Source: Escherichia coli (GTDB lineage Bacteria; Pseudomonadota; Gammaproteobacteria; Enterobacterales; Enterobacteriaceae). From it: 64,000 nucleotides of DNA. Position numbers and translations under genes: made by a program. Below the pieces are notes generated by a model. The model had not been told where the DNA came from and did not search any database. It was given only the letters and a program-made list of their open reading frames with translations. Within the stretch, counting starts at the first letter, position 1. Every line of letters starts with the position of its first letter. Shown piece by piece: positions 4,714 through 64,000 of the stretch. The stretch lies in assembly GCF_011045215.1 (NCBI RefSeq), contig NZ_CP049201.1; one strand, given 5' to 3'.

Positions 4714-5279
4714 TATGTATTCCCTTGTGATTATAATCTTCATGAATATATCAATAAGTGCCGTTATCCAAAAAAAAAGCACATTTGGATACTATTCTAT
4801 GAAGTTCATTTTATTTTAAAGATTACATGTAACAAATGTATTTAAAAGATTTCAAAATGCTTCTAATCTATTTAATATAATTCAGAATTATGAATTCTAA
4901 ATATAAACATTCATGAAAATTATAAATGTATATCAATATATTATGAGTTGAATGGAAAGATAGGGAGTATCAATGATTGTTGCGCCAAACGGCAGGCGTG
5001 ATCACGCGCACATTAATGAAGGTATAAAAAAAGCCGGCATCATGCCGGCCCAAAAAATATAAACAAGACGATAAAAGGCTAATAACGGGGTTATCATGAC
5101 ACAGAAATCAAAAAAGGTATAATTGTATTCAGTGCTAATATATTGTTTGGGTGAATTAATAAAACTATTACCAAGGATATAAATAAATCTTTATTGCTGT
5201 TTTTCCAGTAATTATTGCCGTTGCGCAAAATTTATCTATTTGTTCAAAAAATGATTGAGTCTCGACTGGCTCATCCAAT

Positions 5280-9397: not shown

Positions 9398-10315
9398 ATG
9401 CTTTTGGCCGGGAGTAGTTTACTGACGTTGCTCGATGATATCGCCACACTGCTGGACGATATCTCCGTGATGGGCAAACTGGCGGCGAAGAAAACCGCCG
9501 GTGTATTAGGGGATGACTTATCGCTCAATGCGCAACAAGTTTCAGGCGTGCGGGCCAACCGGGAACTTCCCGTGGTCTGGGGCGTGGCGAAAGGATCGCT
9601 GATTAATAAAGTGATTCTGGTGCCGCTGGCGCTGATCATCAGTGCGTTTATCCCGTGGGCGATTACGCCTCTGTTGATGATTGGTGGCGCGTTTCTCTGC
9701 TTTGAAGGAGTAGAGAAAGTGCTGCATATGCTGGAGGCGCGTAAACATAAAGAAGATCCGGCGCAGAGCCAGCAGCGTCTGGAGAAGCTGGCGGCGCAGG
9801 ATCCGCTGAAGTTTGAAAAGGACAAAATAAAAGGGGCGATTCGTACCGATTTTATATTGTCTGCCGAAATCGTCGCCATCACGCTGGGGATTGTGGCCGA
9901 AGCGCCGTTGCTTAATCAGGTGCTGGTGCTTTCAGGCATCGCGCTGGTAGTGACCGTGGGCGTCTACGGTCTGGTAGGGGTTATCGTTAAGATTGATGAC
10001 CTGGGGTATTGGCTGGCGGAAAAATCCAGCGCGCTGATGCAGGCATTAGGTAAAGGGTTATTGATCATTGCGCCCTGGCTGATGAAAGCGTTATCGATTG
10101 TCGGCACGCTGGCGATGTTCCTCGTCGGCGGTGGGATTGTGGTACATGGAATTGCGCCGCTGCATCACGCCATTGAACATTTCGCCGGGCAGCAAAGTGC
10201 AGTGGTGGCGATGATATTACCGACTGTTTTAAATCTGATTCTTGGATTTATCATCGGCGGCATCGTGGTGCTGGGAGTGAAAGCCGTAGCGAAAATACGC
10301 GGTCAGGCACATTAA
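9398..10315 (+). CDS. yedI: DUF808 inner membrane protein YedI
   Basis: 305 aa polytopic membrane protein in conserved position. Confidence 0.85.
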
Positions 10316-10393
10316 TACTCGCACAGGCTATTATGCAAAATTCGCCATCTTCAACTAAGGTGAACAAGTTTCACTCGAAAAAAGGAGGCGAGT

Positions 10394-10576
10394 ATGAGCT
10401 TTATGGTTAGCGAGGAAGTTACGGTTAAAGAGGGCGGCCCGCGGATGATTGTCACTGGATACTCCAGCGGTATGGTTGAGTGTCGTTGGTATGACGGTTA
10501 CGGGGTCAAGCGGGAAGCTTTTCATGAAACCGAGCTTGTTCCGGGGGAGGGGAGTCGTTCTGCGGAAGAAGTTTGA
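10394..10576 (+). CDS. yodC: Small protein YodC
   Basis: 60 aa; GGAGG RBS upstream; palindromic hairpin downstream (10596-10628). Confidence 0.8.
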   Translation: MSFMVSEEVTVKEGGPRMIVTGYSSGMVECRWYDGYGVKREAFHETELVPGEGSRSAEEV

Positions 10577-10746
10577 AAGGGTATCATTAACACCAGGCCG
10601 GATCACATCCGGCCTGGTGTGCCAATGCCTGCAATGAATGATAGTCGCGTCTTATCATGCCACCATTATAAAATTATCGCTGTTTTGCGGTACGCTATCG
10701 CCAGGTTATGCCAGAATCATAAAAAAGCAGGTTGGGAGTCGTCAGG

Positions 10747-13440: not shown

Positions 13441-13527
13441 AACACATCAGATTTCCTGGTGTAACGAATTTTTTAAGTGCTTCTTGCTTAAGCAAGTTTC
13501 ATCCCGCCCCCCTCAGGGTCGGGATTT
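13441..13527 (+). ncRNA. dsrA: DsrA small regulatory RNA (Hfq-dependent; rpoS activator / hns repressor)
   Basis: Sequence AACACATCAGATTTCCTGGTGTAACGAATTTTTTAAGTGCTTCTTGCTTAAGCAAGTTTC... matches DsrA as I recall it; ends in GC-rich hairpin plus T-run; lies between yedP and yodD. Confidence 0.85.
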
Positions 13528-39580: not shown

Positions 39581-39678
<98 letters not shown>

Positions 39679-48827: not shown

Positions 48828-49376
48828 ATGCAATTTAATATCCCTACGTTGCTTACACTGTTCCGTGTCATCCTTATCCCATTCTTTGTATTGGTCTTTT
48901 ATCTGCCTGTCACCTGGTCGCCGTTTGCCGCCGCGCTCATTTTCTGCGTCGCGGCGGTGACTGACTGGTTCGATGGTTTTCTGGCACGCCGCTGGAACCA
49001 GAGTACCCGGTTTGGTGCTTTCCTTGACCCTGTAGCAGATAAAGTTCTCGTGGCTATCGCCATGGTGCTGGTAACCGAGCATTACCACAGCTGGTGGGTG
49101 ACCTTACCGGCGGCAACGATGATCGCCCGTGAAATTATTATTTCTGCGCTACGCGAATGGATGGCGGAGTTGGGTAAACGCAGTAGCGTGGCTGTCTCCT
49201 GGATTGGGAAAGTGAAAACCACTGCCCAGATGGTGGCGTTGGCATGGCTGCTGTGGCGTCCGAACATTTGGGTTGAGTACGCCGGTATTGCACTTTTCTT
49301 TGTGGCTGCGGTACTGACTCTGTGGTCAATGTTGCAATATTTGAGCGCTGCGCGTGCAGATTTGCTTGATCAGTGA
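48828..49376 (+). CDS. pgsA: CDP-diacylglycerol--glycerol-3-phosphate 3-phosphatidyltransferase PgsA
   Basis: 182 aa; CDP-alcohol phosphatidyltransferase motif (DWFDGFLAR...). Confidence 0.93.
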
Positions 49377-49527
49377 TCGTTTCGGCGCAATTTTCAGCAA
49401 ACGATCAAAAGTGGTGAAAAATATCGTTGACTCATCGCGCCAGGTAAGTAGAATGCAACGCATCGAACGGCGGCACTGATTGCCAGACGATAATAAAATC
49501 AAGTGATTAACTGATTGCTTGATGAAT

Positions 49528-49603
<76 letters not shown>

Positions 49604-49656
49604 GTTTAAAAGGCATCGGCGTCAGCGGATGTCTGGCTGAAAGGCCTGAAGAATTT

Positions 49657-49730
49657 GGCGCGTTAACAAAGCGGTTATGTAGCGGATTGCAAATCCGTCT
49701 AGTCCGGTTCGACTCCGGAACGCGCCTCCA
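49657..49730 (+). tRNA. cysT: tRNA-Cys (anticodon GCA)
   Basis: GGCGCGTTAACAAAGCGG...GATTGCAAATCC...CGCGCCTCCA. Confidence 0.92.
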
Positions 49731-49742
49731 CTTTCTTCCCGA

Positions 49743-49829
49743 GCCCGGATGGTGGAATCGGTAGACACAAGGGATTTAAAATCCCTCGGCGTTCGCGCTG
49801 TGCGGGTTCAAGTCCCGCTCCGGGTACCA
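49743..49829 (+). tRNA. leuZ: tRNA-Leu (anticodon TAA), long variable arm
   Basis: GCCCGGATGGTGGAATCGGTAGACACAAGGGATTTAAAATCCC...CCGGGTACCA. Confidence 0.92.
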
Positions 49830-49865
49830 TGGGAAAGATAAGAATAAAATCAAAGCAATAAGCAG

Positions 49866-49897
49866 TGTCGTGAAACCACCTTCGGGTGGTTTTTTTG
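49866..49897 (+). terminator. Rho-independent terminator of the tRNA operon
   Basis: aaaccaccttcgggtggttttttt. Confidence 0.7.
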
Positions 49898-49998
49898 TAT
49901 TTGTATTTTGAGCAATGGCGGTAGAGTGGCGGTGGTGTGGCGATATGCAGAAACAACAATGGTAGTGCACGTGCTGTTTAAGCTCTAAGGATGAAGCA

Positions 49999-50190
49999 GA
50001 ATTCTCCTGCAGCTCCTCCGTATTTCGCATAGTGAACCAAGACTTCGGTTAAACAAAATTTTTCTGGGATTTTTCCACTCGACTTCATTTTTCCTCCAGT
50101 CATCCACCAAAGGTACCTGCGCTAATCTATCTTTTTTAATCTGACAACATCCTGAGAAAAGGCAAATTCGTCAGATTTACTGTTTTTTCT
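49999..50190 (-). repeat. Degenerate hok/sok-like element lacking the hok ORF (paralogous to 50860-51230)
   Basis: Direct, ~70-75% similar blocks (ctccgtatttcgcatagtgaacc / cttcggttaaaca / ccaaaggtacctgcgctaatctatc / aggcaaattcgtcagatt) shared with the hok locus flanks; the ~120 bp carrying the hok CDS is absent. Confidence 0.55.
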
Positions 50191-50370
50191 ACTGCTTCGA
50201 ATGCCGATGTCTGCAGTACTGATAAGAGCTCTATCTCTTTGATATAGATCTTTTATTTGATGAATTGCTCGACATATTATCGTTATGACACCTTCTTGTT
50301 AAAGGTGTTGTACTCCACATCTCGATTTTATGATGTGGGTTATGATTGGTTAGTAATAGAGTGTATCGGT

Positions 50371-50652
50371 ATGCGATGTGGTTTATTAATGGCAATCTGC
50401 TTTTGTTTGGTATCTTTTAGTGGGTATGCAGCAACAGGAAAGTCTGATGTTCAGATCAAGAAAGAAATAATTAAAGAATCCATTGAATCATATCCAGGCA
50501 ATTGTGCGTGTCCTTATAATCATGCAAGGAATGGTAGTAGGTGTGGTGGACGCAGTGCATATAGCCGTACTGGAGGGTATGATGTGGTATGTTATGAGAG
50601 TGATGTTACTGATGAAATGATCCGGCAATGGAAGCAGGAGAATGCTGATTAA
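50371..50652 (+). CDS. Hypothetical small secreted Cys-rich protein
   Basis: ORF 50257..50652; likely start at ATG 50371 (MRCGLLMAICFCLVSFSGYAA signal-like N-terminus), ~70-aa mature part with four Cys; AT-rich; strong terminator downstream; family not recognised. Confidence 0.5.
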   Translation: MRCGLLMAICFCLVSFSGYAATGKSDVQIKKEIIKESIESYPGNCACPYNHARNGSRCGGRSAYSRTGGYDVVCYESDVTDEMIRQWKQENAD

Positions 50653-50730
50653 TTACTTTTGACTGGTTTGTTTTGCGAGCATTATGTGTGTTGTTAACGG
50701 TACCCTAGCTAAGTGAGAGTTCCAAAATAA

Positions 50731-50762
50731 AACCCGCAGTTTTTACGCTGCGGGTTTTATTG
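50731..50762 (+). terminator. Rho-independent terminator
   Basis: aaaacccgcagtttttacgctgcgggttttattgttt. Confidence 0.75.
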
Positions 50763-50843
50763 TTTCTGTCGATGGGATAGGGTGCCACTTCGGCCAGCCT
50801 TGGCAACCGATTGACGGGGGATTACTCCCCCGTCGCGGTTTCC

Positions 50844-50984
50844 TTACTGCTTACACTGTAAGAACGCCGCAAACTCCGCTCCCCAGAAGCTCATCCGTAT
50901 TTCACACAGCGAACCGTGCAGCATCCAGATGATGAGGATTACCGTCACGCAGAACGTGATGGCCGTAAGCGATTTTTGCGACAT
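50844..50984 (-). CDS. hok: Hok/Gef-family type I toxin (46 aa), below the ORF-track length cutoff
   Basis: Minus-strand translation MSQKSLTAITFCVTVILIIWMLHGSLCEIRMSFWGAEFAAFLQCKQ: single TM helix plus the Hok signature SLCEIR and AAFL tail (HokA-like). Confidence 0.8.
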   Translation of the reverse strand: MSQKSLTAITFCVTVILIIWMLHGSLCEIRMSFWGAEFAAFLQCKQ

Positions 50985-51165
50985 AGCGCTTGCTCCTTTT
51001 TAGGGGAGGCGCTAACCTATCACTTGCTAAGGTTAGATGGTTAGGGCCTCGGTTAAACAGGGATGTTTTCCGGGGCCTTTCCACATCTGGCCTTCGGGCA
51101 TACCCTCCGACCATCAGCCGAAAGGCACCCGCGCGTAATCTATCGTTTTTTTGTTGCTTCGGCAA
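50902..51165 (-). other. mok-like overlapping reading frame / hok mRNA leader; sok antisense RNA expected on + strand within ~51040-51120
   Basis: 87-codon frame overlapping the hok start in another frame, the arrangement of mok in hok/sok loci; sok position inferred, not demonstrated. Confidence 0.45.
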
Positions 51166-51174
51166 TTCTGCTCG

Positions 51175-51435
51175 TTAATTCTGAGGTAAAGGCAAACTCA
51201 TCTGATTGTTTCCCCTGTGTGACGTTGGCAGTTCATGCCACGGGATACCTTCTGAAGATCGAACGCCTGAGGTGTGTTTCGATGTGAATTTATGGAAAGC
51301 TTCCAGTGTTGAGAAGCATACGCCGCATTCCAGGTTGTTACACTGGTAATACTTTTGTCGGACGGTGTTTGAATCATTTTCCGGACGACTTGTGCGGATA
51401 CGGGCAGATGCGCCACAAAGCGGACAACGGAACAT
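51175..51435 (-). CDS. ogr: Ogr/Delta-family zinc-finger late transcription activator
   Basis: MFRCPLCG...ARIRTSR...YYQCNNLECG Cys4 pattern typical of P2 Ogr; AGGGAGG RBS. Confidence 0.85.
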   Translation of the reverse strand: MFRCPLCGASARIRTSRPENDSNTVRQKYYQCNNLECGVCFSTLEAFHKFTSKHTSGVRSSEGIPWHELPTSHRGNNQMSLPLPQN

Positions 51436-51611
51436 AGCAACCTCCCTTTAGGTGGTGCTATTCTAAATTTCATCAATGCAGATTCCAACTCCTTCCCACT
51501 TTAAGCGAAGGATGGTGATAAAGTCAGAAGATGTTAGATGAAATCTAAACGGGCGATAAGTTTTCCAATATTTGAATAACAACGTGGCAGGATTTTTGTT
51601 TATCAATTATC

Positions 51612-51629
51612 TTACACTTTTAAGTGTAA
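51612..51629. promoter_or_regulatory. Perfect palindrome TTACACTTTTAAGTGTAA (candidate operator) upstream of the cargo gene
   Basis: 8-bp inverted arms around a 2-bp centre, ~25-40 bp upstream of the cargo ORF start. Confidence 0.4.
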
Positions 51630-51654
51630 TAAATTTGTTAGTGATGACAATATT

Positions 51655-53077
51655 GTGAGAGGAGATTATCAATTGAAGATGGCAAAAAATAACAATGATA
51701 AAATGCGGGCAAAGTATAGGCCGTTCATAAATATATGGGAACATCTTCCTTCTGAGTTCAATGAACTCATCAAGACGTTAATGGTGCTGATACGGCAAGG
51801 GGAAAATGTGGGAGCTCAGCAAAGGGAGCTTGATTCCATCGAAAACTTCAAACACCTGTTAAGTGGATGGAAGCGGGCGCAAAGGATCATAGCTGATGAA
51901 CTCATTATCAGGCTTTCTCAAATCAAGGATCTGGAGTTAGAAAAGAATTGTGCCCATTCAAAAAAGGACTATGAAACAAAGAAGAAGTGTATACGCAATA
52001 TTGAAAGGACTAGACTAGAAATTAGGATTTTACGTAGGTGCATTGATTCAATTGTATGGGCGATATTCCGCAATGAACACTCGTCTATAAGACGTTTACC
52101 TATAAATAGAAATACTGACAATCTGACAATATTTAATATACATGATTCAATGGTGGTAGCAGATGAAATCAATGCTGATCCGATGGCTATAGCTGTTATC
52201 ACTGATATTACTACGTTTGTACATACTGGTGATTTACTTGCGTTAATACCTCAGCAAGGCATAACTTTAATTGAAATAAAAAGTGGTAAGAAAAATATAG
52301 AGTTTTCAAAGGCGGCTATGTTCTCAGTGCAAAGTAAATGTCTTCATTTTGATGAGATTTATAGAAAAGACCTTGATAAAAATGACTTGAAACACTATGA
52401 CAGAGCTAAGCGTCAACTTAAAAGAGCTCAAAATGTGATAGATGTCATTGAGACTGGTAAGGGATTTGATAACTTTTTTCAGTCTCAAGTAACAATTCAT
52501 GACAGAGATTTTTGTCCCGATTTTTATACAGATAAGATTATTGAGCTTTGGTATGAGATATATAACGGTAAAACTTGGGCGATTACTGACATTAATGATT
52601 GTTTATTCCTTGGGGCATATATTAATTCTAATATGGGTTTTTGCGGTTTTAATGGATGGATGGAGGTATCTAGAATATCGGGGAGAGTGGTTTAATATTC
52701 TTGATAGCTTTTCAGATGCTTTATCACGTCCATTTTTTAGTTTGAACCTACCTGATAAATTGCTTCTGGATATCATTAATGGCAATCTAATTGTTGTGCT
52801 GTGTTTCGATCATCGTCGTTTCGTAGAAAGAGCAAATAAAAAATACCCCGGGATTTATGAGTTATTGGATTTTCCATCTCCGAAGATTAATCCTATGAGT
52901 ATGCTTTCCATCAATGGGAAGGGGGTAGTTTCTAGTGTTGATGGACAGAGTGTTTTTATTGGAAATGGTTACGAAACTCGGATTATTTTTGATCAGCAAT
53001 ATCCAGATAGTCTGATTAAGTGGTCATACCATATGAGTGATCTCAAAAAAATATTGATAAAAAAAAGCGTAAAATGA
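51655..53077 (+). pseudogene. AT-rich prophage cargo gene of unknown family, apparently frameshifted (~470 aa if merged); PD-(D/E)xK-like motif
   Basis: ORFs 51655..52695 (frame 1) and 52499..53077 (frame 2) overlap; both have protein-like sequence outside the overlap; frame switch needed near the G-run at 52678-52690; motif VITDI...TGDLLAL...LIEIKSGKK. Confidence 0.55.
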
Positions 53078-53272
53078 AAAAGGAAACGCAAAGAAAAATA
53101 AAAGAGAAAAGAAAACGTAGCAGAAAACAATGCTTAAACTAACACATCTAATGCTTTAATTTGCTTTACTGTTACAATGTCCGCTTACTGGTACAGGGCG
53201 GACTGCCATATTAGATTTGGTTCTATCTCGTAAGAGTGGCCGTTCAGGTCTGCACTAATACATCTGAATGGT

Positions 53273-54382
53273 TCACTCTGTTTCTGCTATCCATTCCGGG
53301 ATTTTTGCTTCAAGCTCAAGCTGCGTGGTAAAGCCGCTGTTATCAATGGTGTGCTCGGCTTTTGCAATAATCCAGTCCTGATTATCAATCTCGCTTTTAA
53401 ATCCTGTTACCGTGCCATGCATTTCGGGGTAGAGTTCTGCGCGTCCGCGTGCCAGTGTGATGGAGAATGATGCGGCTCCGCGTTGTAGTTGTTGCCACTT
53501 TGCCGCCGCTGCGCGTCTTGCTGCCTGCTCGTTCTGATAAGTCTTGCGTAACACAAACACATTGCCTTCCGCGCCTTCCATATAATCACCTTCACGGCTG
53601 CTGCTTTTCTCTTTTTTCGGTTTTGGCGGTTTGCGGCGTTTCACGCTGACTTTTTTCTTTTTCCCGTAATTAAGATCAAGCCAGTAAGCGCGTACCCCCG
53701 TATACGCCTCGCGGTCAGCAATGCGGAACTGATGGCGATCGCCGCTGCTGCGTGTGATGGCGAACGAGGGCAACGGCTGGCCCTGTGCGTTCACGCCACC
53801 GCCGGGCATGATGAATAACAGATTACCGCTTTTTACCGTGGTGATTGCGCCCAGCATTTCCGCCATGCGCGTAAGGAAGGACATGTCACTTTCTTCGGTC
53901 TGGTCGGCGTGGTCGATTTCGATATCCATCAGCATTTCGCTGATTTGCGGTTTCAGACCGTACCGATGAGCGATGGCGGATACCACACGCTCAACGGTCA
54001 CATCATGCCAGGACATCTCACGTTTAACGTTAAATTCATCCCGAAAATCTGCGCTTCTGGCTGAAACAGTCAGCCTGTCCGGCGGTCCTTCGTGTGCGAT
54101 TTCATCAACAATGTAAGAGCCTTTTTCTGTCAGCGGTTCGCCTTTCCAGCCAATGAGAACCGTCAGGCGCGCGCCCCGTGGCGGTAGCCGCAACTGACCA
54201 TCCGCATCATCCAGCGTGATGGTGAGCTGGTCTGCCTCAAATCCCCGGTTGTCGGTCAGCGACAGGCTCATCAGGCGCTCTGCCACGCCGGACAGCGTTT
54301 TACCCTCCGCGAGAATATCAAAATCCGGCATTTTTACGGGGTCTGTGCCCTGACTGAGCAATTGCATGGTGGTGTCGGTCAT
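53273..54382 (-). CDS. P2 gpD-like tail protein (late control gene D homolog)
   Basis: Start at ATG 54382 (MTDTTMQLLSQ...) with GGGAGGG RBS; 369 aa; gpD-like. Confidence 0.8.
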   Translation of the reverse strand: MTDTTMQLLSQGTDPVKMPDFDILAEGKTLSGVAERLMSLSLTDNRGFEADQLTITLDDADGQLRLPPRGARLTVLIGWKGEPLTEKGSYIVDEIAHEGPPDRLTVSARSADFRDEFNVKREMSWHDVTVERVVSAIAHRYGLKPQISEMLMDIEIDHADQTEESDMSFLTRMAEMLGAITTVKSGNLLFIMPGGGVNAQGQPLPSFAITRSSGDRHQFRIADREAYTGVRAYWLDLNYGKKKKVSVKRRKPPKPKKEKSSSREGDYMEGAEGNVFVLRKTYQNEQAARRAAAAKWQQLQRGAASFSITLARGRAELYPEMHGTVTGFKSEIDNQDWIIAKAEHTIDNSGFTTQLELEAKIPEWIAETE

Positions 54383-54539
54383 CTGTTCCCTCCCTGTGCG
54401 GCATGGTCGCATGTGCGTGCGGAGGGGGTTACTGCTTTTTGTTGTCGCCGGGTCGGGAGAACGGCGCAGGGGTGAGATTACGCGCGTGGTGGGTGATGAT
54501 TGTTGCCGAATCATTTAACGGATACAAGGGGCTGAAGCT

Positions 54540-55724
54540 ATGAGTGAAACTCGTTTTCATGGTGCCCGTGTTACGGAAAATACCGACCTGGTAACAGCGA
54601 TTAACGATGTTGATTCCAGCGTTATCGGTATCGTGGCAACGGCGGATGATGCGGACGCGAAGCTGTTCCCGCTGAACAAGCCCACACTGCTGACCCGCGT
54701 CAATGACGTGCTGGGAAAATGCGGGACAACGGGGACGCTTTATCGTGCGCTTAAGGCCATCGCAGACCAGGTGAGCACAAAGGTGATCGTCGTTCGCGTG
54801 GCTGAACACAAAGAAGAAGACGGAAAAACGCAGGATCAACTGGTTATCGGTGGTTCTGAATCTGACGGCAGCTATACGGGGATGTATGCGCTGCTTGTTG
54901 CAGAGCAGGATGAAAGCATCGGATACCGTCCGCGTATTCTGGCCGCGCCGGAGCTGGACACGGAGGCGGTAACAAAATCCCTGTGCGTGATTGCGGGTAA
55001 ACTGCGCGCGTTTGTGTATGCCTCATGTCACGGCTGTAACACGATGGCTGAGGCGATTACCTACCGCCAGAAATTCAACGAACGTGAGGTGATGCTCTTA
55101 TGGCCGGACTTCATCGCCTACAACCCGAAAAGTGGCAAAAACGAAACGTTCCCCGCGCCTGCCTATGCGTGCGGCCTTCGTGCGTACATTGACCATGAGC
55201 AGGGATGGCACAAATCACTGTCCAACGTTCCGGTTAAAAATGTGCTGGGGATGTCGAGGCATGTGTTCTGGTCGTTGCAGGCCGAAGACAGCGATGCCAA
55301 CAGCCTCAACAACAAAGAAATCACGACCATTATTCGTCGCAACGGGTTCCGCTTCTGGGGCAACCGCACACCGGAAACGAACGCCTACATCTTTGAGGTG
55401 TATACCCGAACCGCACAGGTGCTGGCTGATTCAATTGCGGAAGCGCAGTTTGAAACCATCGACAGTCCATTAACACCCGCGAACGTGAAGGATGTTATCA
55501 GTGCCATCAGGGCAAAACTGGATTCGCTGGTTACTGCCGGGAAACTGATAGGCGCGGAGTGCTGGTATGACGTGGTGGATAACAGCACCACGGATTTACG
55601 TCAGGGACGTGTGCGTATTCGCTACAAATATACGCCCGTTCCGCCACTGGAAGACATGGAGCTTTACCAGACGTTTACTGATGAATACTTTGAACCCGCA
55701 TTTGCGGTGCTGGGAGGTGCCTGA
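54540..55724 (+). CDS. P2 FI-like contractile tail sheath protein
   Basis: 394 aa; blocks shared with P2 FI (FPLNKP, LRAF, WPDF, EQGWHK.LSNV, IRRNGFRFWGNRT, YTPVPPLE). Confidence 0.9.
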   Translation: MSETRFHGARVTENTDLVTAINDVDSSVIGIVATADDADAKLFPLNKPTLLTRVNDVLGKCGTTGTLYRALKAIADQVSTKVIVVRVAEHKEEDGKTQDQLVIGGSESDGSYTGMYALLVAEQDESIGYRPRILAAPELDTEAVTKSLCVIAGKLRAFVYASCHGCNTMAEAITYRQKFNEREVMLLWPDFIAYNPKSGKNETFPAPAYACGLRAYIDHEQGWHKSLSNVPVKNVLGMSRHVFWSLQAEDSDANSLNNKEITTIIRRNGFRFWGNRTPETNAYIFEVYTRTAQVLADSIAEAQFETIDSPLTPANVKDVISAIRAKLDSLVTAGKLIGAECWYDVVDNSTTDLRQGRVRIRYKYTPVPPLEDMELYQTFTDEYFEPAFAVLGGA

Positions 55725-56236
55725 TGGCTGTGCCAAAACATCTTCGCTTTTTTACGCTGTTTGTGGATGGTGAAAACGAAGTGGGTAAGGTGACGTCCGT
55801 CACTCTGCCTAAGCTGACGCGCAAAACCGACAGCTACCGGGGTGGCGGCATGATGGGTGCGGTAAGTATTGATCTCGGTCTGGACGACTCCGCGCTTGAT
55901 GCGAGCTTTGTCATGGGGGGCGCAGTTCGTGAGCTGTTCCTTAAGTATGGCGGCACGATTGACGGCACGCTGCTGCGTTTTGCGGGTGAATACTACACCG
56001 ATGCAGAAAGCGACCTGTATGAAGTCGAAATGCGCGGACGTGTGACGGAAATTGATATGGGGGAAGCCAAACAGGGCGAAGCCACATCACACACTTACGC
56101 CATTAAAAACACCTACTACAAGCTGAGTGTTAACGATCGCCCGTTGTGGGAGATTGACCTGCTGAACTTCATTTACCGGAAGGACGGCAAGGACATTGTG
56201 CCCGATCGCATCCGTTCCGCGCTTGGGCTTGGCTGA
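55724..56236 (+). CDS. P2 FII-like tail tube protein
   Basis: 170 aa directly after sheath gene. Confidence 0.85.
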   Translation: MAVPKHLRFFTLFVDGENEVGKVTSVTLPKLTRKTDSYRGGGMMGAVSIDLGLDDSALDASFVMGGAVRELFLKYGGTIDGTLLRFAGEYYTDAESDLYEVEMRGRVTEIDMGEAKQGEATSHTYAIKNTYYKLSVNDRPLWEIDLLNFIYRKDGKDIVPDRIRSALGLG

Positions 56237-56290
56237 TAAGTAATATGCAGGCGGCGCAGTGCGTCGCCTCTGACTGAAAGGAGTTTCCTG

Positions 56291-56656
56291 ATGAAAGAGA
56301 CGAAAAACATCGATACCGAAAACACGGTAGTTACTGACACTGTGAAAGAAACCAGTGAGCGTGGCGTAAAACTTACCCAACCAATTGAGCGAGGCGGCGA
56401 AAAAATCACGTATGTGGAGATCACCGGGGCTATTGAGCAGGCTGGATCTCTGCGAGATTTGTCGCTGTCTGATGTGCTGAATCTGAAAGCGGAATCCATG
56501 TTTACGCTGCTGTCACGCGTGACATCACCGCGACTGGATGAAGTGACGATCAAAAAAATGGCATCCCGTGACTTTATTCAGTTATGTGTGGTTGCCGTAA
56601 ATTTTTTGAGCGGTGCGGACTCTGGCGGGAAGAACGAACAGGCGACGGAAGCCTGA
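56291..56656 (+). CDS. P2 gpE-like tail assembly chaperone (E; E+E' by -1 frameshift)
   Basis: 121 aa; followed by overlapping E' frame 56584..56820. Confidence 0.8.
   Translation: MKETKNIDTENTVVTDTVKETSERGVKLTQPIERGGEKITYVEITGAIEQAGSLRDLSLSDVLNLKAESMFTLLSRVTSPRLDEVTIKKMASRDFIQLCVVAVNFLSGADSGGKNEQATEA
56602..56608 (+). promoter_or_regulatory. Programmed -1 ribosomal frameshift slippery site (T TTT TTG) for E+E' fusion
   Basis: Heptamer TTTTTTG inside gpE where the E' frame (56584..56820) opens; conserved recoding in P2-like tail chaperones. Confidence 0.7.
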
Positions 56657-56770
56657 TCACGGTTGTGTGCTTTGAGCACATAGAAGACTTTGTGGCGGAT
56701 ATTGCCGCCATTTTTAACTGGTCGCCCGCCGAAATCTTCATGATGACGCCCGGCGAAGTGGTTAGCTGGC

Positions 56771-59614
56771 GTGAGCGGGCGGCACTTCGCAGCGGGAATG
56801 CAGACAATGAAGACTCTTGATATCCGGGTCGCTTTCAGCGCCGTTGACAGGCTGACCCGGCCTGCCGAAAACGCCCGCCGCCTGATGGGGCAGTTTGGTG
56901 ACTCCATCCAGCGAACGCAGGGGGCGATCAAAAATCTCGAGCGTCAGGCGCGTTCATTTGAGCGCGCCCGTGACGCTGTCAGTAAAGCGGATGCTGGCAT
57001 ATTGAAAGCACGACGCCAGCTTAACGCCCTTAATCAGTTACAACGCACGGGTACAGTGCTCAGCGAAAAACAACAAAAGCTGATGCAGCAGTTAAGCACC
57101 CGGCTTGAACGCCTGAATGAATCGCGCACACGTGAAATTCAGAAAATGCGGGAGCTTGGCGGAGAGCTGAAACGCCACGGCATTTCCCTGACAGGCAGCG
57201 ATAACACCATCCAGCAGGCCATCAGACGCACCGAACAGTACAACAACCAGCTTGAACGCGAACGGCAGGCGCTTGCGCGTGTAACGCGGGCGCGTGAGCG
57301 GTATTCGCGCGCGCAGGAAACCGCGGGAAAACTGAAAACAGGTGGTGCGCTGGCAATTGGTGCGGCAGCGGCTGGCGGCTATGCTGCCGGGCGTTTTTTG
57401 CAGCCTGCGATCGGGTTCGGCAAAGAGATGTCCCGCGTTCAGGCACTGACGCGAATCGACAAAAACAGCCCGCAGTTTAAGGCGCTGCGTGAGCAGGCGT
57501 TAAAACTTGGCTCTGAAACACAGTTTACTGCGAGTGATGCCGCCAGTGGGCAGAGCTTTCTGGCAATGGCTGGTTTTACTCCGCAGTCCATTCAGGCCGC
57601 ATTGCCCGGTGTTCTTAATATGGCGCTGGCAGGTGGCGTCGAACTCGGCGAGACGGCTGATATAGGCTCCAATATCCTCACACAGTTCAACCTGACAGCC
57701 GATCAAATGGGCCGTGTTGGCGATACGCTGACAGCAGCATTCACCCGGACCAATACTGATTTACGCGCGCTGGGCGAAACCATGAAGTATACCGGTCCGG
57801 TTGCCGCAAAACTTGGTATCAGTCTTGAAGAAGCGGCAGCCATGGCCGGGATGCTTGCCAATAATGGTCTTCGTGGAAGCGATGCTGGTACGGCCATTCG
57901 CGCAAGTCTGTCCCGCCTTGCATCACCGCCAAAAGCTGCGGCTGATGCGCTGAAAGAGCTGGGGGTGTCAGTTGCTGACGCCAGAGGCAAAATGCGCCCG
58001 ATGGAGGATGTGCAGCTTGATCTCTACAAGGCGACACAAAAATACGCACAGGTGGACCAGGTTTCCTTCTTCAAGGACATCGCCGGAGAAGAGGCGTTCG
58101 TTGGTTTGCAGACGCTTGTTGCGGCGTCTGGTTCAGGAGAGCTGCAAAAACTGACCAGAGAATTGCAGGGGGCAAGGGGAGAGGCCGATCGCGTTGCAAA
58201 AGTAATGGCCGATAATCTTGATGGGGACCTGAAAAATCTCGACAGCGCATGGGAAGGTCTTCGTATTCGCATCAGTGATCTGGTTGACGGTCCGCTGCGT
58301 TCTGTCACGCAGTGGCTCACGCGGGGGCTTGAAAAAATCACCTCGCTGGCGCAGGCCCATCCGGTACTGACGCGCCAGCTACTGATAGCAGGCGGTGCGT
58401 TGCTGGCAATGACTGTAACGATTGGCTCGTTGTCGCTGGTTATTGGGGGGCTTTACGGGAAGCTGGCTACCTTGCGTCTTGGTTTTGACATTCTTACCCG
58501 GTCAATGAATGTCGTCAGGGTGTTGCCTGCGCTGTGGGGAATGGTGACGGGTTCCGTTTCTTTACTGGGAGGCGCTATCGGGGCGCTGTTCAGTCCGGTT
58601 GGTCTTATCGTGGCTGCGCTTGCCGGAGCTGCCGTTCTTATCTGGAAATACTGGGATCCCATCAGGGCATTTTTTGCAGGGGTGTTCAGCGGGATTATGG
58701 AAAGGCTGACCCCGTTGCGCGAAACCTTTGAACGGTTTGGTCCTGTTTTTGACGCAATCGGAAGCGGGATCAGCCAGGTGTTTAACTGGTTTAAATTGCT
58801 GCTGTCACCGATGGAGTCCAGCAAGGAAACGCTGGATAAATGCACCAGTGCTGGCGAGGTATTCGGTAACGTTCTTGGTGGCGCGTTACAGCTTGTTCTG
58901 ACGCCTGCAAAAATGCTGCTGGATACGCTGGCGTGGATACTTGAAAAACTCGGTGTGCTTCCGGATGAGGCGGAAAGGGCGCGTAAGAAAATCGAAGACG
59001 CACAGCGTGCGGCCATTCTTCAGGACAAGGTTGCCTTGCTTCAGGGGGATCTGGCGAAAATCAATCCGCCGAAGCCTGTGGAAAATGGCAATGGCACCGG
59101 AGGTGATAAACCCAAAGACAACAAACCGCTCACAGACAGCAATACCGGGACGCTACGCAGACTCAGCAAAATTGCTGATAACACAGGTAAGCTGGTTGAT
59201 GAGACGAAAAAACGCATTGGCCCCGGCGATATTGTCTTTAAGAACCTGCCCCGCGCACTTGCTGTTCGTGGGGAGTGGCAGGAGCGGAAGATTGCGCAGG
59301 TCAGTAAGCCTGCCCCCGCAATTAATATCACACCTGTGGTCCCGGCTCCGCTGCCTCCGACGCTGGTCCCTGTTGTTGCGGCCAGCTCCCGCCCGGTGGC
59401 GGAGTCCATACGATCTCCAGTGGCATCAGTTCCTGCAACTTCCCGTAACCGGGAGCCTGTTGCCTCCGGATTTGGCGGTGAAATTCATGTTCATCTGCAT
59501 AACGTTGTTACGCAGAATCCCCGCGAACTGGCGAAACTGGTCGGCGAAATGGTCAGTGCAGAAATGGAACGGCGCGCCCGTGCCAGGCGTGGCAGTTTTT
59601 ACGATAAAGATTGA
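56771..59614 (+). CDS. P2 gpT-like tail tape measure protein
   Basis: 947 aa, coiled-coil N-terminal part and hydrophobic Gly-rich central segments. Confidence 0.88.
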   Translation: MSGRHFAAGMQTMKTLDIRVAFSAVDRLTRPAENARRLMGQFGDSIQRTQGAIKNLERQARSFERARDAVSKADAGILKARRQLNALNQLQRTGTVLSEKQQKLMQQLSTRLERLNESRTREIQKMRELGGELKRHGISLTGSDNTIQQAIRRTEQYNNQLERERQALARVTRARERYSRAQETAGKLKTGGALAIGAAAAGGYAAGRFLQPAIGFGKEMSRVQALTRIDKNSPQFKALREQALKLGSETQFTASDAASGQSFLAMAGFTPQSIQAALPGVLNMALAGGVELGETADIGSNILTQFNLTADQMGRVGDTLTAAFTRTNTDLRALGETMKYTGPVAAKLGISLEEAAAMAGMLANNGLRGSDAGTAIRASLSRLASPPKAAADALKELGVSVADARGKMRPMEDVQLDLYKATQKYAQVDQVSFFKDIAGEEAFVGLQTLVAASGSGELQKLTRELQGARGEADRVAKVMADNLDGDLKNLDSAWEGLRIRISDLVDGPLRSVTQWLTRGLEKITSLAQAHPVLTRQLLIAGGALLAMTVTIGSLSLVIGGLYGKLATLRLGFDILTRSMNVVRVLPALWGMVTGSVSLLGGAIGALFSPVGLIVAALAGAAVLIWKYWDPIRAFFAGVFSGIMERLTPLRETFERFGPVFDAIGSGISQVFNWFKLLLSPMESSKETLDKCTSAGEVFGNVLGGALQLVLTPAKMLLDTLAWILEKLGVLPDEAERARKKIEDAQRAAILQDKVALLQGDLAKINPPKPVENGNGTGGDKPKDNKPLTDSNTGTLRRLSKIADNTGKLVDETKKRIGPGDIVFKNLPRALAVRGEWQERKIAQVSKPAPAINITPVVPAPLPPTLVPVVAASSRPVAESIRSPVASVPATSRNREPVASGFGGEIHVHLHNVVTQNPRELAKLVGEMVSAEMERRARARRGSFYDKD

Positions 59615-59620
59615 GGAGTC

Positions 59621-60115
59621 ATGGCCATGATGATGATCTATGGCATGTTTGTTTTTGAGCTGCGCACACTGCCACATCAGCAGTTACAGCAAAACAAAAG
59701 CTGGCGGCATGTGAAAAATGAACGCGTTAACCGTTCAGCAAGCTGGCAGTATATCGGTGCAGGTGATGATCGCATCGTTCTTTCCGGCGTGCTTTATCCT
59801 GAAATTACAGGTGGTGAAGTGTCGCTGTCGCTGCTGACCACGCAGGCATATACAGGGCGGCCCTGGCCTCTGATTGATGGTGTCGGGCAGATTTACGGCA
59901 TGTATGTCCTGACCGGAACGAATACGACCCGCTCCGAGTTTGATCGCTACGGTAAGGCGAAAAAAATAGAATTTTCACTGACCCTTGAACGCTGTGATGA
60001 GGATTTGCGGGAGCGCCTGCAATCCTCATCGTTCAGCGATATGCTGTCCGGCTTCAAAGATAAGGTGACATCATCCCTTAACAGCGCGGCCAGTTCAGTT
60101 AAAGGACTGTTCTGA
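59621..60115 (+). CDS. P2 gpU-like tail protein
   Basis: 164 aa directly after tape measure gene. Confidence 0.8.
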   Translation: MAMMMIYGMFVFELRTLPHQQLQQNKSWRHVKNERVNRSASWQYIGAGDDRIVLSGVLYPEITGGEVSLSLLTTQAYTGRPWPLIDGVGQIYGMYVLTGTNTTRSEFDRYGKAKKIEFSLTLERCDEDLRERLQSSSFSDMLSGFKDKVTSSLNSAASSVKGLF

Positions 60116-60211
60116 TTTTACATTGCCGCCGATACCCTCATATTGGGTAATGGGCGGCTTGTTGTTATATAATATATCGTAGGTCCTGATAAAACTGTTG
60201 AGGTTTCTACT

Positions 60212-61450
60212 TTATAAAGAATTGCTACTTTCTAATTCTGGGTTTCTGGATCTATTTTTACAACCTAAATCCGAGTGGTAATTCGGTATATCGTTTGTCA
60301 AATCTTGTTTGATAGCATTAATTAAGATCATTATGTCGAATTTATGCATATCGTCGCCCCCTTCAGACCTTAGATGTTCGGATGTGGTGAGTTGAGTCGC
60401 TAATTTGCTGTTTGGCCCCCACACAATATTGTTTTCGAATTTTCCTTCATGCATTCTGTTATTATATATACAGTATTGTCTAATGTTTAATCCACTGGCT
60501 AAATGTACAATAGCAGTATCTACAGTTATAACAAAATCAGCATGGCGAACCAATGCAAATGAACATCCGGCATCAGAAAATGGAGATAGAGACACATTAT
60601 CCAATCCATTGTGATTAATCTGTTCTCCCATATTAAAAACTATTGTGTGATATCCCTTAAGGTTATTAAGGTAAGCTAGTACTTTGTTTATCTGTTCATC
60701 AGATAATGTTCTGCTATTCTGAGAACCATAAGGGTTAAATATAACTAATTTTTTGTTTTTCTTCCTGAATTCATTTGCAACAATATTTGCTGGTTCATAT
60801 ATTTTGTTGTCAAAATTAAGCGCTGCAGCATAATTATTATTTTTTATCTTTAGTAAAGATAAAACTTTTTTCATTCTTTCAGATGTGTGAATGGAACGAT
60901 TATCGATTATATTTGTATCAAAAATAGTTACGGCAGGATGATTAAAACAGATAGAGTGTTTAGGTCTAAGTAAATGTAGTGTTTGCAATCTGGTTATCGC
61001 TGTGTTATCAAAATTTGAGAAGTCAACAACAAGATCTACATTCAGTTTTTTTATCTTTGCTTTTAGTTCGTTAAATTTATTTTTCTCGTAAGATATAAAG
61101 GCATCCACGCCAACAATATCAGTAAAGAGGAATGATACTCTTGAAGGTGCTATCACATATACCACCATACCGGATTTTTGAAGTTGTTTAATAAACCCTG
61201 AGGTAACGATGCCGTCACCAATGGCTTGCATGTGCATGAAAATGCACACTGTTTTATAACTATCCGGCTGTAATGATGTTTTCCTTCTGTATCGCATTTT
61301 TAGAAATGCCAGTCTGGCCTTCGTCTTTATCTTTTTTGTTTTAATATTTCGCTCTCTGTTAAGCTGTTTTAATGATGAAATAACATTCATAATGGTACCC
61401 TGAAAATCCAAATCACACATGTCATCCGAAATGAGCAGGATACTATACAA
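60212..61450 (-). CDS. Glycosyltransferase family 9 (ADP-heptose:LPS heptosyltransferase-like) cargo gene, AT-rich
   Basis: 412 aa; GT9-like N-terminal motif CIFMHMQAIGDGIVTSGFIKQL and C-terminal HADFVITVDTAIVHLASGLNIRQYCIY; sits between tail-fibre-assembly G and tail genes (Z/fun position); start may be internal. Confidence 0.7.
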   Translation of the reverse strand: MYSILLISDDMCDLDFQGTIMNVISSLKQLNRERNIKTKKIKTKARLAFLKMRYRRKTSLQPDSYKTVCIFMHMQAIGDGIVTSGFIKQLQKSGMVVYVIAPSRVSFLFTDIVGVDAFISYEKNKFNELKAKIKKLNVDLVVDFSNFDNTAITRLQTLHLLRPKHSICFNHPAVTIFDTNIIDNRSIHTSERMKKVLSLLKIKNNNYAAALNFDNKIYEPANIVANEFRKKNKKLVIFNPYGSQNSRTLSDEQINKVLAYLNNLKGYHTIVFNMGEQINHNGLDNVSLSPFSDAGCSFALVRHADFVITVDTAIVHLASGLNIRQYCIYNNRMHEGKFENNIVWGPNSKLATQLTTSEHLRSEGGDDMHKFDIMILINAIKQDLTNDIPNYHSDLGCKNRSRNPELESSNSL

Positions 61451-61484
61451 AAAACTGGACTACAATGGTTTGAAATGAAAGCCT

Positions 61485-62084
61485 TTATGCTTGTTTACTC
61501 CTTGATTCCACTGGGGAAGCAGGCCACTCAATATCCGGTGCTCTTGATGTATCAACACGGTTCAGCAGCACTCGATACTTCTTCCATGCCACCAGTAACG
61601 ATGTTTCTTCCTCTGTTGCAATATTCAAATCTACGGCATCTTGAAGTGGCGAAATATGCTCACTGGCTACCTGCATGAGGCTGTTTTTTGTTTCTTCCGC
61701 CTCCCGTATCCGGAACACTTTTTCTGCTTCTGCATCTTTCACCCACGTTGTGCCGTTCCACTTCTGAAACTCCCCTTCCGGGGATAACCAGGTGACATTT
61801 TCCGGTAATGGACCGAGTTCAGAAATAAATAACGCGCCCCCTGATGCCACGTCATAAACCGTTTTACCACGATGATCTTCAACGAGATGCCAGGACGTCT
61901 TATCACTGTTGAAAATAGCCACGAAGCCAGCTGGAATATCTGGCGGAGAAATATCAGTACTATTTGCAGGTAGACCTGTATGAGGTGGAATGTATGCATC
62001 ACCTTCACCAATAAATTCATTGGTTCCGACCAGCAGATTATAAATTTTTATGGTTCGTGGTTGTTCACTCATTCTGAATGCCAT
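61485..62084 (-). CDS. Tail fibre assembly protein (P2 gpG/Tfa-like)
   Basis: 199 aa; start overlaps stop of tail fibre gene. Confidence 0.85.
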
Positions 62085-63259
62085 TATGCAAGCCTCACAA
62101 TATAGTTAAATGCGATGTTTTTTACGGTGTTTTCCGCGTTGCCATAAGCGGCAATGGTAATGGTGTGTGTGTGCGAACCAATAGCGAGCGTATGTGTATG
62201 CGCACCTATTGCTACTGTGTGAGTATGAGCTCCTGCGCTTAATACGCGATTACTTGCTGTCTTGCTTGTGTTAGTTGCATGCATTCCACCACCGGTACCG
62301 GGAGTTTCTGCGTATGCTGAAGTATTGTTGTAAGCAAAGTTGTGTGTATGTGCTCCGGTGTTATTTGTGGATTTAGTTCCGTAATCAAACGACGATGTGG
62401 TTTTCGTCCCCAAATCCGTACTGGATGCGCTGGCGCTGTGGGTGTGCGATTTAATGCCGTCCTGTTCCTGAGACAATACGGCTCGACCACTGGCTGGTTT
62501 GCCCTTAATCGTCCAGCCACGCATATCAGGGATCACGCCTGACGGATAAGCGGCTGCAAGTTTCGGGTATGCAGATTTGTCAAAAGTCTGCCCCTGCATC
62601 AGGGCATAACCAGACGGAACGGTATCTGATGGCCACGGGATTGGTGCGCCAGGCGGATAAAACTGCTCTGATGGCGTATAGAGTGAATAAACTGTACCGT
62701 CCGTTAACCCTTCCGGCTTATTAGCAGAATATGCTGGTGACGTATGAATCGTCACGCTGGCATTACTGGTATAATCCCATTGAATATTTACACCAGTCGC
62801 ATAATTTCCGATTGCAACGTAAATATCGTAAGTATCACCAGATGTATTGACCCAGGCAAAATTTGTAAACCCTGTCGATGTGCGCTGCCATAAAGCACCA
62901 GTAATCCCCTTCGGATTACCATTACCTGCACGCAAAACAAGTTCAGATATACCTGCCTGTTGAGGTGAACCGACGTTATATCCAGCCCCACCAATCAACG
63001 TAATTGAAACAACAGAACTCGCCTGCGGCATGGTTACCGTTGCTAATTTGAACCAACCAGCACCACCGCTAAATGACATAGTTGTTGAGTTAAGCGTACC
63101 AATATCTTTCGGTGTCAGTGTTATATCCGCTGAAAGCGCCTTACCATTCACCTTACGGGCAGAAGGTACGGTCTGGCAAGAGCCGCCCGGCAAACGTCCT
63201 GGCATCAGTCTGCGCTTTACTTTAAGCGCAATGTATTGCTCGGTTGCTACATCCCGCAC
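62084..63259 (-). CDS. Tail fibre protein, C-terminal part of gpH-like protein (5'-truncated, fused at a deletion junction)
   Basis: C-terminal repeats [30 protein letters not shown] typical of enterobacterial phage tail fibres; N-terminal ~35 aa of the ORF is antisense read-through of the portal fragment. Confidence 0.7.
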
Positions 63260-64000
63260 CCGCTGCTTTCCCGGCAGGATTTCTCGGCGCTGGCGCTGGA
63301 CTGGTTTGTGTTCGGTAACGCATTCCTTGAGCTTCGGAGCAATATGCTCGGCGAACCACTTAAATTACGGCACGCACTGGCGAAATACATGCGACGCGGA
63401 AGCGATCTTGAATCATGGTGGTATGTGCAGGATGGCAAGGACGCGTTTCAGTTTCGCCCTGGCAAAGTGTGCCACCTGATGAATCCGGACATTAACCAGG
63501 AAATTTACGGCATGCCGGAATATCTTGGAGCATTACTCTCGGCCAGCCTGTCTCATTCGGCGGACATGTTCAGAAAACTGTATTACGACAACGGATCCCA
63601 CGCCGGGTGCATCATCTACATCGGTGCAGCGCAGGTAAACCGCGAAAGCATGGACTCCCTGAAAGAAACGTTACAGGGTGCGCGTGGTGGTGGTGCGTTT
63701 AAAAACGTGCTCATCCACGCGCCCAACGGGGGCAAAGAGGGGGTGCAAATTTTGCCGTTCCAGCAGATCACCGCAAAGGATGAGTTCATGAATGTTAAGG
63801 CGGCATCCCGTGATGATGTGCTGGCTGCGCACCGCGTTCCGCCGCAACTGATGGGGGCGATGCCGGGCGAAAAAAGTGCGTTTGGTGATGTGGAGAAGGC
63901 CGCGCGGGTTTACGCAATTAACGAGCTGATGCCCGTCATGGAGGCTATGAAGCACATCAATGACTGGCTTGGCGAAGAGGTGATCCGCTTTAACCCTTAC
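63248..64000 (+). pseudogene. Portal protein (P2 gpQ-like) fragment, 5'-truncated, runs off window end
   Basis: Frame-2 translation open to window end: ...[15 protein letters not shown]...FMNVKAASRDDVLAAHRVPPQLMGAMPGEKSAFGDVEKAARVYAINELMPVMEAM...; portal-like RVPPQLMG motif; not in ORF track because it has no stop in window. Confidence 0.65.

Follow-up and report, generated by a model that had tools for sequence, protein, structure and literature searches.

A defective P88-like prophage at leuZ of Escherichia coli with a probable single internal deletion and a tail-gene layout native to its group

The 64,000-nucleotide stretch of Escherichia coli DNA that we analysed (contig NZ_CP049201.1 of assembly GCF_011045215.1; hereafter the window) ends within a prophage at the tRNA gene leuZ. 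Positions 49775-64000 hold the left part of this element, and its int/C/cox/A side lies beyond 64000. With a probability of roughly 90% we regard it as a defective temperate myovirus of the P88-like group (Peduoviridae, Xuanwuvirus/Gemsvirus type) which has suffered one deletion of about 11.4 kb and whose tail genes FI to U lie in the layout native to that group. An earlier sequence-only reading had described a defective P2-like prophage downstream of leuZ with a large internal deletion fusing the portal gene Q to the tail-fibre gene H, and had added an inversion of the FI-U block; the deletion is borne out by the comparisons given below, and the inversion is not.

The junction between tail-fibre and portal genes

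Two truncated genes meet near the end of the window. The first, H', consists of the C-terminal 361 codons of the tail-fibre gene (62084-63169, minus strand), the N-terminal 342 codons being deleted, and corresponds to residues 343-703 of the 703-residue H protein of strain TH9F11 with 98.6% identity. The second, Q', is the portal gene from codon 62 of 349 onwards (63167-64000, plus strand); it has no start codon and no in-frame stops, runs to the window end with its stop about 30 nucleotides past 64000, and shows 97.6-98.3% nucleotide identity to the portal genes of the A17 prophage and the phages P88 and 500465-2. Neither fragment is therefore full length, as had been predicted. A BLASTN comparison with the intact A17 prophage showed that 49001-60151 is collinear with it at 97.5% identity, that 62340-63169 matches the 3' part of H and that 63165-63795 matches Q from nucleotide 182. 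In the three-way comparison both parental sites of A17 contain the pentamer GGTAC, which is found as a single copy at 63165-63169 of the window, where it forms a microhomology between the H side and the Q side and marks the deletion junction. The sequence-only reading had the fusion right and its position wrong, as it placed the junction at about 63248-63259: the 391-codon open reading frame (ORF) up to 63259 consists of H' and a further 30 codons read antisense through Q, and ORF boundaries thus misplace the junction by about 90 bp.

The DNA missing at the junction amounts to 11,374 bp in A17 coordinates and comprises the 5' half of H, the genes I, J, W, V, S, R, X, L, M, N, O and P and the first 61 codons of Q. 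The lost lysis genes are lysC, a spanin/DUF2570 gene and those for endolysin and holin. The element is thus not an intact prophage, with H and Q truncated and the head, terminase, lysis and baseplate genes absent. Judged from this gene content, the remnant should be capable neither of head formation and DNA packaging nor of cell lysis and baseplate assembly, and because the genes for head, packaging, lysis and baseplate are gone neither phage nor tailocin particles would be expected. By analogy with the P2 map, G and H' would also have lost their operon promoter, which is located upstream of V. Excision and immunity would hinge on genes that lie past 64000.

We propose that a P88-like myovirus integrated site-specifically at the 3' end of leuZ, which would have duplicated a 124-bp attachment (att) sequence, and that later a single illegitimate recombination between the GGTAC pentamers in H and Q may have removed the approximately 11.4 kb. 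An accessory gene between ogr and D is frameshifted, and hok, ogr, D, FI, FII, E/E', T, U, G and a glycosyltransferase family 9 (GT9)-like gene are intact. That about 8.5 kb of the remaining late genes are intact suggests that the deletion is recent.

Three observations weigh against this history. As the int/C/cox/A half is outside the window, the choice between a simple deletion within one element and an exchange between two prophages has to be made from the window by itself. Neither the 5,426 complete E. coli genomes nor the GTDB representative genomes contain the H'-Q' junction. Finally, two indels fall within the 1.5 kb of the accessory gene and the roughly 8.5 kb of phage genes are free of them, an uneven distribution for neutral decay behind which homopolymer-prone AT-rich sequence, selection or an error in sequencing may stand.

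The first of these points bears on an alternative in which H' and Q' were joined by illegitimate recombination between two P88-like prophages, for example by an inversion between oppositely oriented copies, so that the Q' side would be foreign. E. coli genomes often hold more than one P88-like prophage (in up to three or four places per genome), such an inversion would give the same local orientation, and the H' and Q' sides differ slightly in their best matches. Mosaic best matches are, however, normal in P88-like phages, and order and orientation are exactly as expected for an internal deletion of a collinear A17-type map, which takes one event and no second element. We therefore consider an exchange between prophages improbable. 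Even less probable is that the junction, the frameshifts in the accessory gene or both are artefacts of assembly or sequencing and that the prophage of the strain is intact. One of the frameshifts does lie in an A7/A8 homopolymer and the junction is unique among the genomes searched, but an overlap of 5 bp cannot cause an assembler to mis-join, the phage sequence on either side is clean and of high identity as far as the junction, and independent internal deletions are found in related prophages, such as the I'-N' fusion of TH9F11.

The latter belongs to the P88-like prophage near ihfA of E. coli TH9F11, in which an independent deletion has fused I' to N' (locus L004, 15647-16621). As TH9F11 carries its own internal deletion, such prophage decay is recurrent. 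Defective prophages of the P2 family are frequent in E. coli and lose internal segments repeatedly, so that the deletion described here matters little as it stands.

A separate observation concerns the portal gene in public sequences. In many public contigs the P88-like portal is called as two ORFs of 72-80 and 228 residues (loci L017-L020, about 9640-10687). The 228-residue ORF is identical to the window from 63344 onwards, extends past the window end and closes with a 9-residue C-terminus conserved in P88, A17 and TH9F11. On record it occurs only in other prophages, as part of a split portal gene with a full P gene upstream. These split calls suggest a recurrent break or a sequencing problem near portal codons 70-120.

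Orientation of the FI-U block

In P2 the genes H, G, FI, FII, E, T, U, D and ogr all lie on one strand, and seen against this order the FI-U block of the window looks inverted. The annotation of P88 gives a different picture: H and G on the plus strand are followed by an alternative tail-fibre segment with a DNA invertase gene, by U, T, E', E, FII and FI on the minus strand, by D on the plus strand and then by hok, ogr, the att site and int. When flipped, this map is exactly the arrangement of the window, in which H and G share one strand, FI-U is convergent to them, D is divergent from FI, and ogr and hok lie beyond D. The same layout is present in phage 500465-2, in the A17 leuZ prophage, in the TH9F11 prophage and in a Raoultella prophage. 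Of the 5,426 complete E. coli genomes, 1,354 contain without interruption a 601-bp probe made of the 5' end of D, the 157-bp intergenic region and the 5' end of FI, as do 13 phage records (P88 and 12 others). Overall protein identity by TBLASTN was 93-100% to P88 versus 32-48% to P2, and as the F operon is not co-directional with H and G the element does not belong to Peduovirus (P2 sensu stricto).

The FI-U orientation is thus the native architecture of the P88-like group and not a rearrangement of this element, and any inversion relative to P2 would predate the P88-like lineage. The sequence-only reading had proposed an inversion of the block between 54.5 and 60.1 kb with breakpoints in 54383-54539 and 60116-60211. 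In order to hold, it would require a P2-ordered prophage that was inverted in this strain in addition to the deletion. Apart from the contrast with P2, nothing that we found speaks for this. Functional P88 shows the arrangement, and so do seven or more other phage genomes, the apparently complete A17 prophage and a quarter of the complete E. coli genomes, the proteins are those of P88 and not of P2, and no inverted repeats joining the two intervals were found. The first interval is the native D/FI intergenic region and the second is the edge of a variable accessory-gene slot. As this gene order with these strands is the normal arrangement of an intact phage family already known, the P88 group, the proposal of an inversion has to be given up; we attach next to no likelihood to it. 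P2 is the wrong gene-order template for P88-like prophages, and annotators should not call an inversion here.

Integration site, remaining phage genes and accessory genes

The 49 kb upstream of the prophage are ordinary E. coli chromosome, running from fli genes to sdiA, uvrY, uvrC and pgsA, with up to 99.6% identity of the host flank to complete E. coli genomes. From 49.9 kb on the composition becomes mosaic, with two islands of 33-35% GC content amid sequence of about 54%. The glyW-cysT-leuZ tRNA genes were located at 49528-49829 (ARAGORN), in agreement with the integration site that had been named before. The attL repeat (49775-49898, plus strand) is 124 bp long, comprises the final 55 nucleotides of leuZ and 69 bp 3' of it, and includes a terminator hairpin (49872-49893). 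The A17 prophage carries a second, 100% identical copy at its distal end, beside int/yecA. The prophage hence starts inside leuZ, phage-specific DNA begins at 49899 and, as yecA follows directly 3' of leuZ at the empty site of strain PapM-32-1, the insertion lies between leuZ and yecA.

The att-proximal arm (49899-50723, 40% GC) is common to A17 and not to P88, whose homology to the window begins only at 50724 in the BLASTN search. It contains a small ORF (50371-50652, plus strand, 93 codons) with a signal-peptide-like N-terminus, for which we found no meaningful Pfam match and zero PADLOC-DB families. Weak direct similarity was observed between 50003-50177 and 50880-51207 at the hok/ogr end (80-87% over blocks of 30-36 bp, E 4e-5), which could be the degenerate remains of a former prophage end.

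The remaining phage genes were identified by PHROG searches and by TBLASTN against P88 and P2, and both agree with the P2-like gene content and strands that had been read from the sequence (ogr, D, FI, FII, E/E', T, U, G, H and Q). The late proteins that are the hallmark of the Peduoviridae, namely Ogr, D, FI, FII, E/E' with its -1 frameshift, T, U and Q, are present. Starting from the att side, an intact gene of 46 codons for a toxin of the hok/gef family (50844-50984, minus strand) carries the SLCEIR motif, and its counterparts in A17, P88 and TH9F11 are annotated as Hok/Gef or MokW-like; no Rfam family for Sok or hok RNA reached its gathering score in the window. The late-gene activator gene ogr (51175-51435, minus strand, 86 codons, intact) encodes a zinc-finger protein (phrog_603, E 4.7e-15) that is identical to that of A17, with 95% identity to P88 and 41.5% to P2 Ogr. 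The intact gene D (53273-54382, minus strand, 369 codons) codes for the VgrG-like tail and late control protein D (phrog_52, E 1e-166), which is full length with 96% identity to D of P88 and 48% to D of P2.

The divergent intergenic region between D and FI (54383-54539, 157 bp) presumably carries late promoters. No strict Ogr-type site of the form TGT-N12-ACA is present in it, and because the count of such sites over the whole region (5 versus 3.7 expected by chance) is near chance we make no claim about individual late promoters. On its other side follow, all on the plus strand, the intact genes FI for the tail sheath (54540-55724, 394 codons; phrog_23, E 1e-127; 99.5% identity to P88) and FII for the tail tube (55724-56236, 170 codons; phrog_55; 100%), then E (56291-56656; phrog_103) with the longer E+E' frameshift product (56291-56820), whose -1 frame is open to 56820. 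The slippery sequence T TTT TTG for the -1 frameshift is preserved at 56602-56608, and the T6G device is also annotated in P2. The module closes with the intact genes T for the tape measure (56807-59614, 935 codons; phrog_28; 93.4% to P88 over 935 residues) and U for a tail protein (59621-60115, 164 codons; phrog_76; 100% to P88). Sheath, tube and tape measure are thus intact in comparison with P88, as the sequence-only reading had it.

In favour of D-FI-FII-E-T-U being a domesticated, tailocin-like contractile device kept under selection, all seven tail genes, about 6.9 kb in length, are intact and the E/E' frameshift site is conserved. We nevertheless hold this to be scarcely credible, as the element lacks the baseplate genes V, W, J and I, R, S and X for tail completion and the lysis cassette, the tail fibre is truncated and the near-identity to P88 fits recent loss better than long-term maintenance. 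An R-type tailocin was rejected as a candidate on the same losses.

On the minus strand between U and H' lie the GT9-like gene discussed below and the intact tail-fibre assembly gene G (61485-62084, 199 codons; phrog_105, E 8e-98). The Rfam family IS009 gave a full-length match wholly inside G (61543-61741, minus strand, 188 bits versus a gathering score of 117), so that this small RNA family here coincides with prophage coding sequence. The stretch 61522-63091, comprising G and the 3' part of H, is about 90% identical to stf/tfa of the lambdoid phages ev099, mEp332 and JL22, a likeness that would fit the known exchange of fibre tips among phage families.

Both accessory genes that had been described as cargo are present, and one of them is not intact. 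The supposed gene at 51655-53077 is a single gene of about 487 codons between ogr and D (51679-53143, plus strand, 35% GC), which is split into ORFs of 346 and 192 codons by two frameshifts, an additional G at about 52689 and a -1 shift in an A-run at about 53045. Compared with the intact 487-codon gene of A17, 1695 of 1700 positions are identical with 2 gaps. Homologues are consistently about 485 residues long with 33-74% identity and occur in Serratia, Dickeya, Yersinia, Raoultella, Morganella, Aeromonas, Enterobacter and Pseudomonas. The family is solitary in three slots of P2-family prophages, namely between ogr and D in E. coli, between U and the tail fibre in Raoultella, and in the S-V/orf30 slot of an Enterobacter prophage that is P2-ordered. 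It was also found on a Dickeya integrase island beside Fic and PDDEXK_4 genes and on other small islands. Loci of the family were recorded as L006 (6001-7458), L016 (6001-7500) and L014 (6001-7458).

Searches with the family gave no PADLOC, PHROG, Pfam (single sequence and 24 members), NCBIfam or PDB sequence-profile match. Its AlphaFold models are confident and had no significant structural neighbour; the structure search with the full-length model (mean predicted local distance difference test score, pLDDT, of 89) gave only coiled-coil or helical matches. The residues D176, D185, E199 and K201 are invariant and resemble a PD-(D/E)xK motif, which we take as only a lead.

The second accessory gene (60212-61390, minus strand, 392 codons, 33.5% GC; phrog_36326) is intact and occupies the slot between U and G. 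RefSeq names its product a "glycosyltransferase family 9 protein"; the match to Pfam PF01075 is weak (E 1.9e-4 over 104 residues only) and that to the NCBIfam model RfaQ reaches 22 bits with a cut-off of 467. It is present in 48 of the 5,426 E. coli genomes. In Providencia, unrelated prophages of the Mu-like and E217-like types carry homologues immediately behind their tail-fibre assembly genes, in one case with a glycosyltransferase family 2 (GT2) gene as neighbour (loci L012, 7001-8104, and L013, 7001-8107). The gene thus follows tail-fibre assembly genes in three unrelated myovirus backbones and looks like a recurrent tail-fibre-adjacent conversion gene, and its predicted product may reasonably be supposed to modify a surface glycan or receptor.

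P2-family prophages keep anti-phage genes in such slots (PMC9122126; bioRxiv 10.64898/2026.02.27.708500). It could be possible that the family between ogr and D is a new single-gene system against phages or other mobile elements, inactivated here, and, as a separate proposal, that the GT9-like gene serves superinfection exclusion by modifying the receptor; taken jointly, these two suggestions are tentative and may well prove wrong. Zero PADLOC-DB families match either of the two proteins, and in the papers searched we found no mention of the accessions WP_038820202, for the intact A17 gene, or WP_001100987, for the GT9-like family. With an uncharacterised mobile gene family in one and a tail-fibre-adjacent glycosyltransferase in the other, the ogr-D and U-G slots are the only places of the element with open biology.

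In the host part of the window Rfam recorded the small RNA genes rseX, DsrA and ES036 (CssrF) at 5026-5115, 13441-13527 and 39601-39642, respectively. An IS200/IS605-type TnpB gene is present near fliC, within 25-42 kb of the window.

Comparison with known phages and prophages

In a MEGABLAST search against phage genomes the region from D to U matched P88, 500465-2, PhiR44_2, P884B11, Shae_phiSM and Chuche at 92-97%. Of these, P88 (Xuanwuvirus, NC_026014) and 500465-2 (Gemsvirus) are nearest, with 93-97% nucleotide identity from D to U. Genera are separated by the International Committee on Taxonomy of Viruses (ICTV) at about 70% nucleotide identity over the whole genome; the identity to the P88-like type members, 93-97% from D to U and 98% in Q', is over the retained regions only. 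P88 itself was induced from an E. coli K88 lysogen and forms plaques (PMC5285337). In both P88 and the window, ogr, D, FI-U and G/H follow one another in the same order and with the same orientation, a hok gene stands beside ogr and the E/E' frameshift is present; the proteins Ogr, D, FI, FII, E, T and U are those with 93-100% identity. In contrast to the element described here, P88 is complete, with head, terminase, lysis and baseplate genes. It carries its DNA invertase and alternative tail-fibre segment between G and U, where the window has the GT9-like gene, and it has no gene between ogr and D and a different att arm.

The A17 prophage (NZ_CP028757, about 2859-2895 kb) has the leuZ site, the 124-bp att repeat and the accessory gene between ogr and D in common with the window. 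It is apparently complete, with a full interval from H to Q and an early region reaching to int, and its accessory gene is an intact ORF of 487 codons, whereas that of the window is frameshifted. Its U-G slot holds a different small "transferase", and the C-terminus of its tail fibre differs, with 84% amino acid identity. The prophage of TH9F11 (NZ_CP054191) is 95.3% identical over 53255-63169, which includes D, FI-U, the GT9-like gene, G and the 3' part of H. Like the window element it is internally deleted, but it is located at ihfA, its fusion joins I' to N', and its H, P and Q genes are complete. The U-G slot is thus filled by an invertase segment in P88, by the small "transferase" in A17 and by the GT9-like gene in the window and in TH9F11.

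P2 (Peduovirus P2, NC_001895) has the same families Ogr, D, FI, FII, E/E' with the T6G slip, T, U, G and Q. In P2, however, FI-FII-E-T-U-D form one operon co-directional with H-G, whereas FI-U of the window is opposite to D, G and H. P2 also has no hok gene and integrates at sites other than tRNA genes, in contrast to the window element, which is located at leuZ and carries hok. P2 keeps its accessory genes in fixed slots such as fun(Z), orf30 and old/tin, and the window element likewise uses slots for such genes (PMC9122126).

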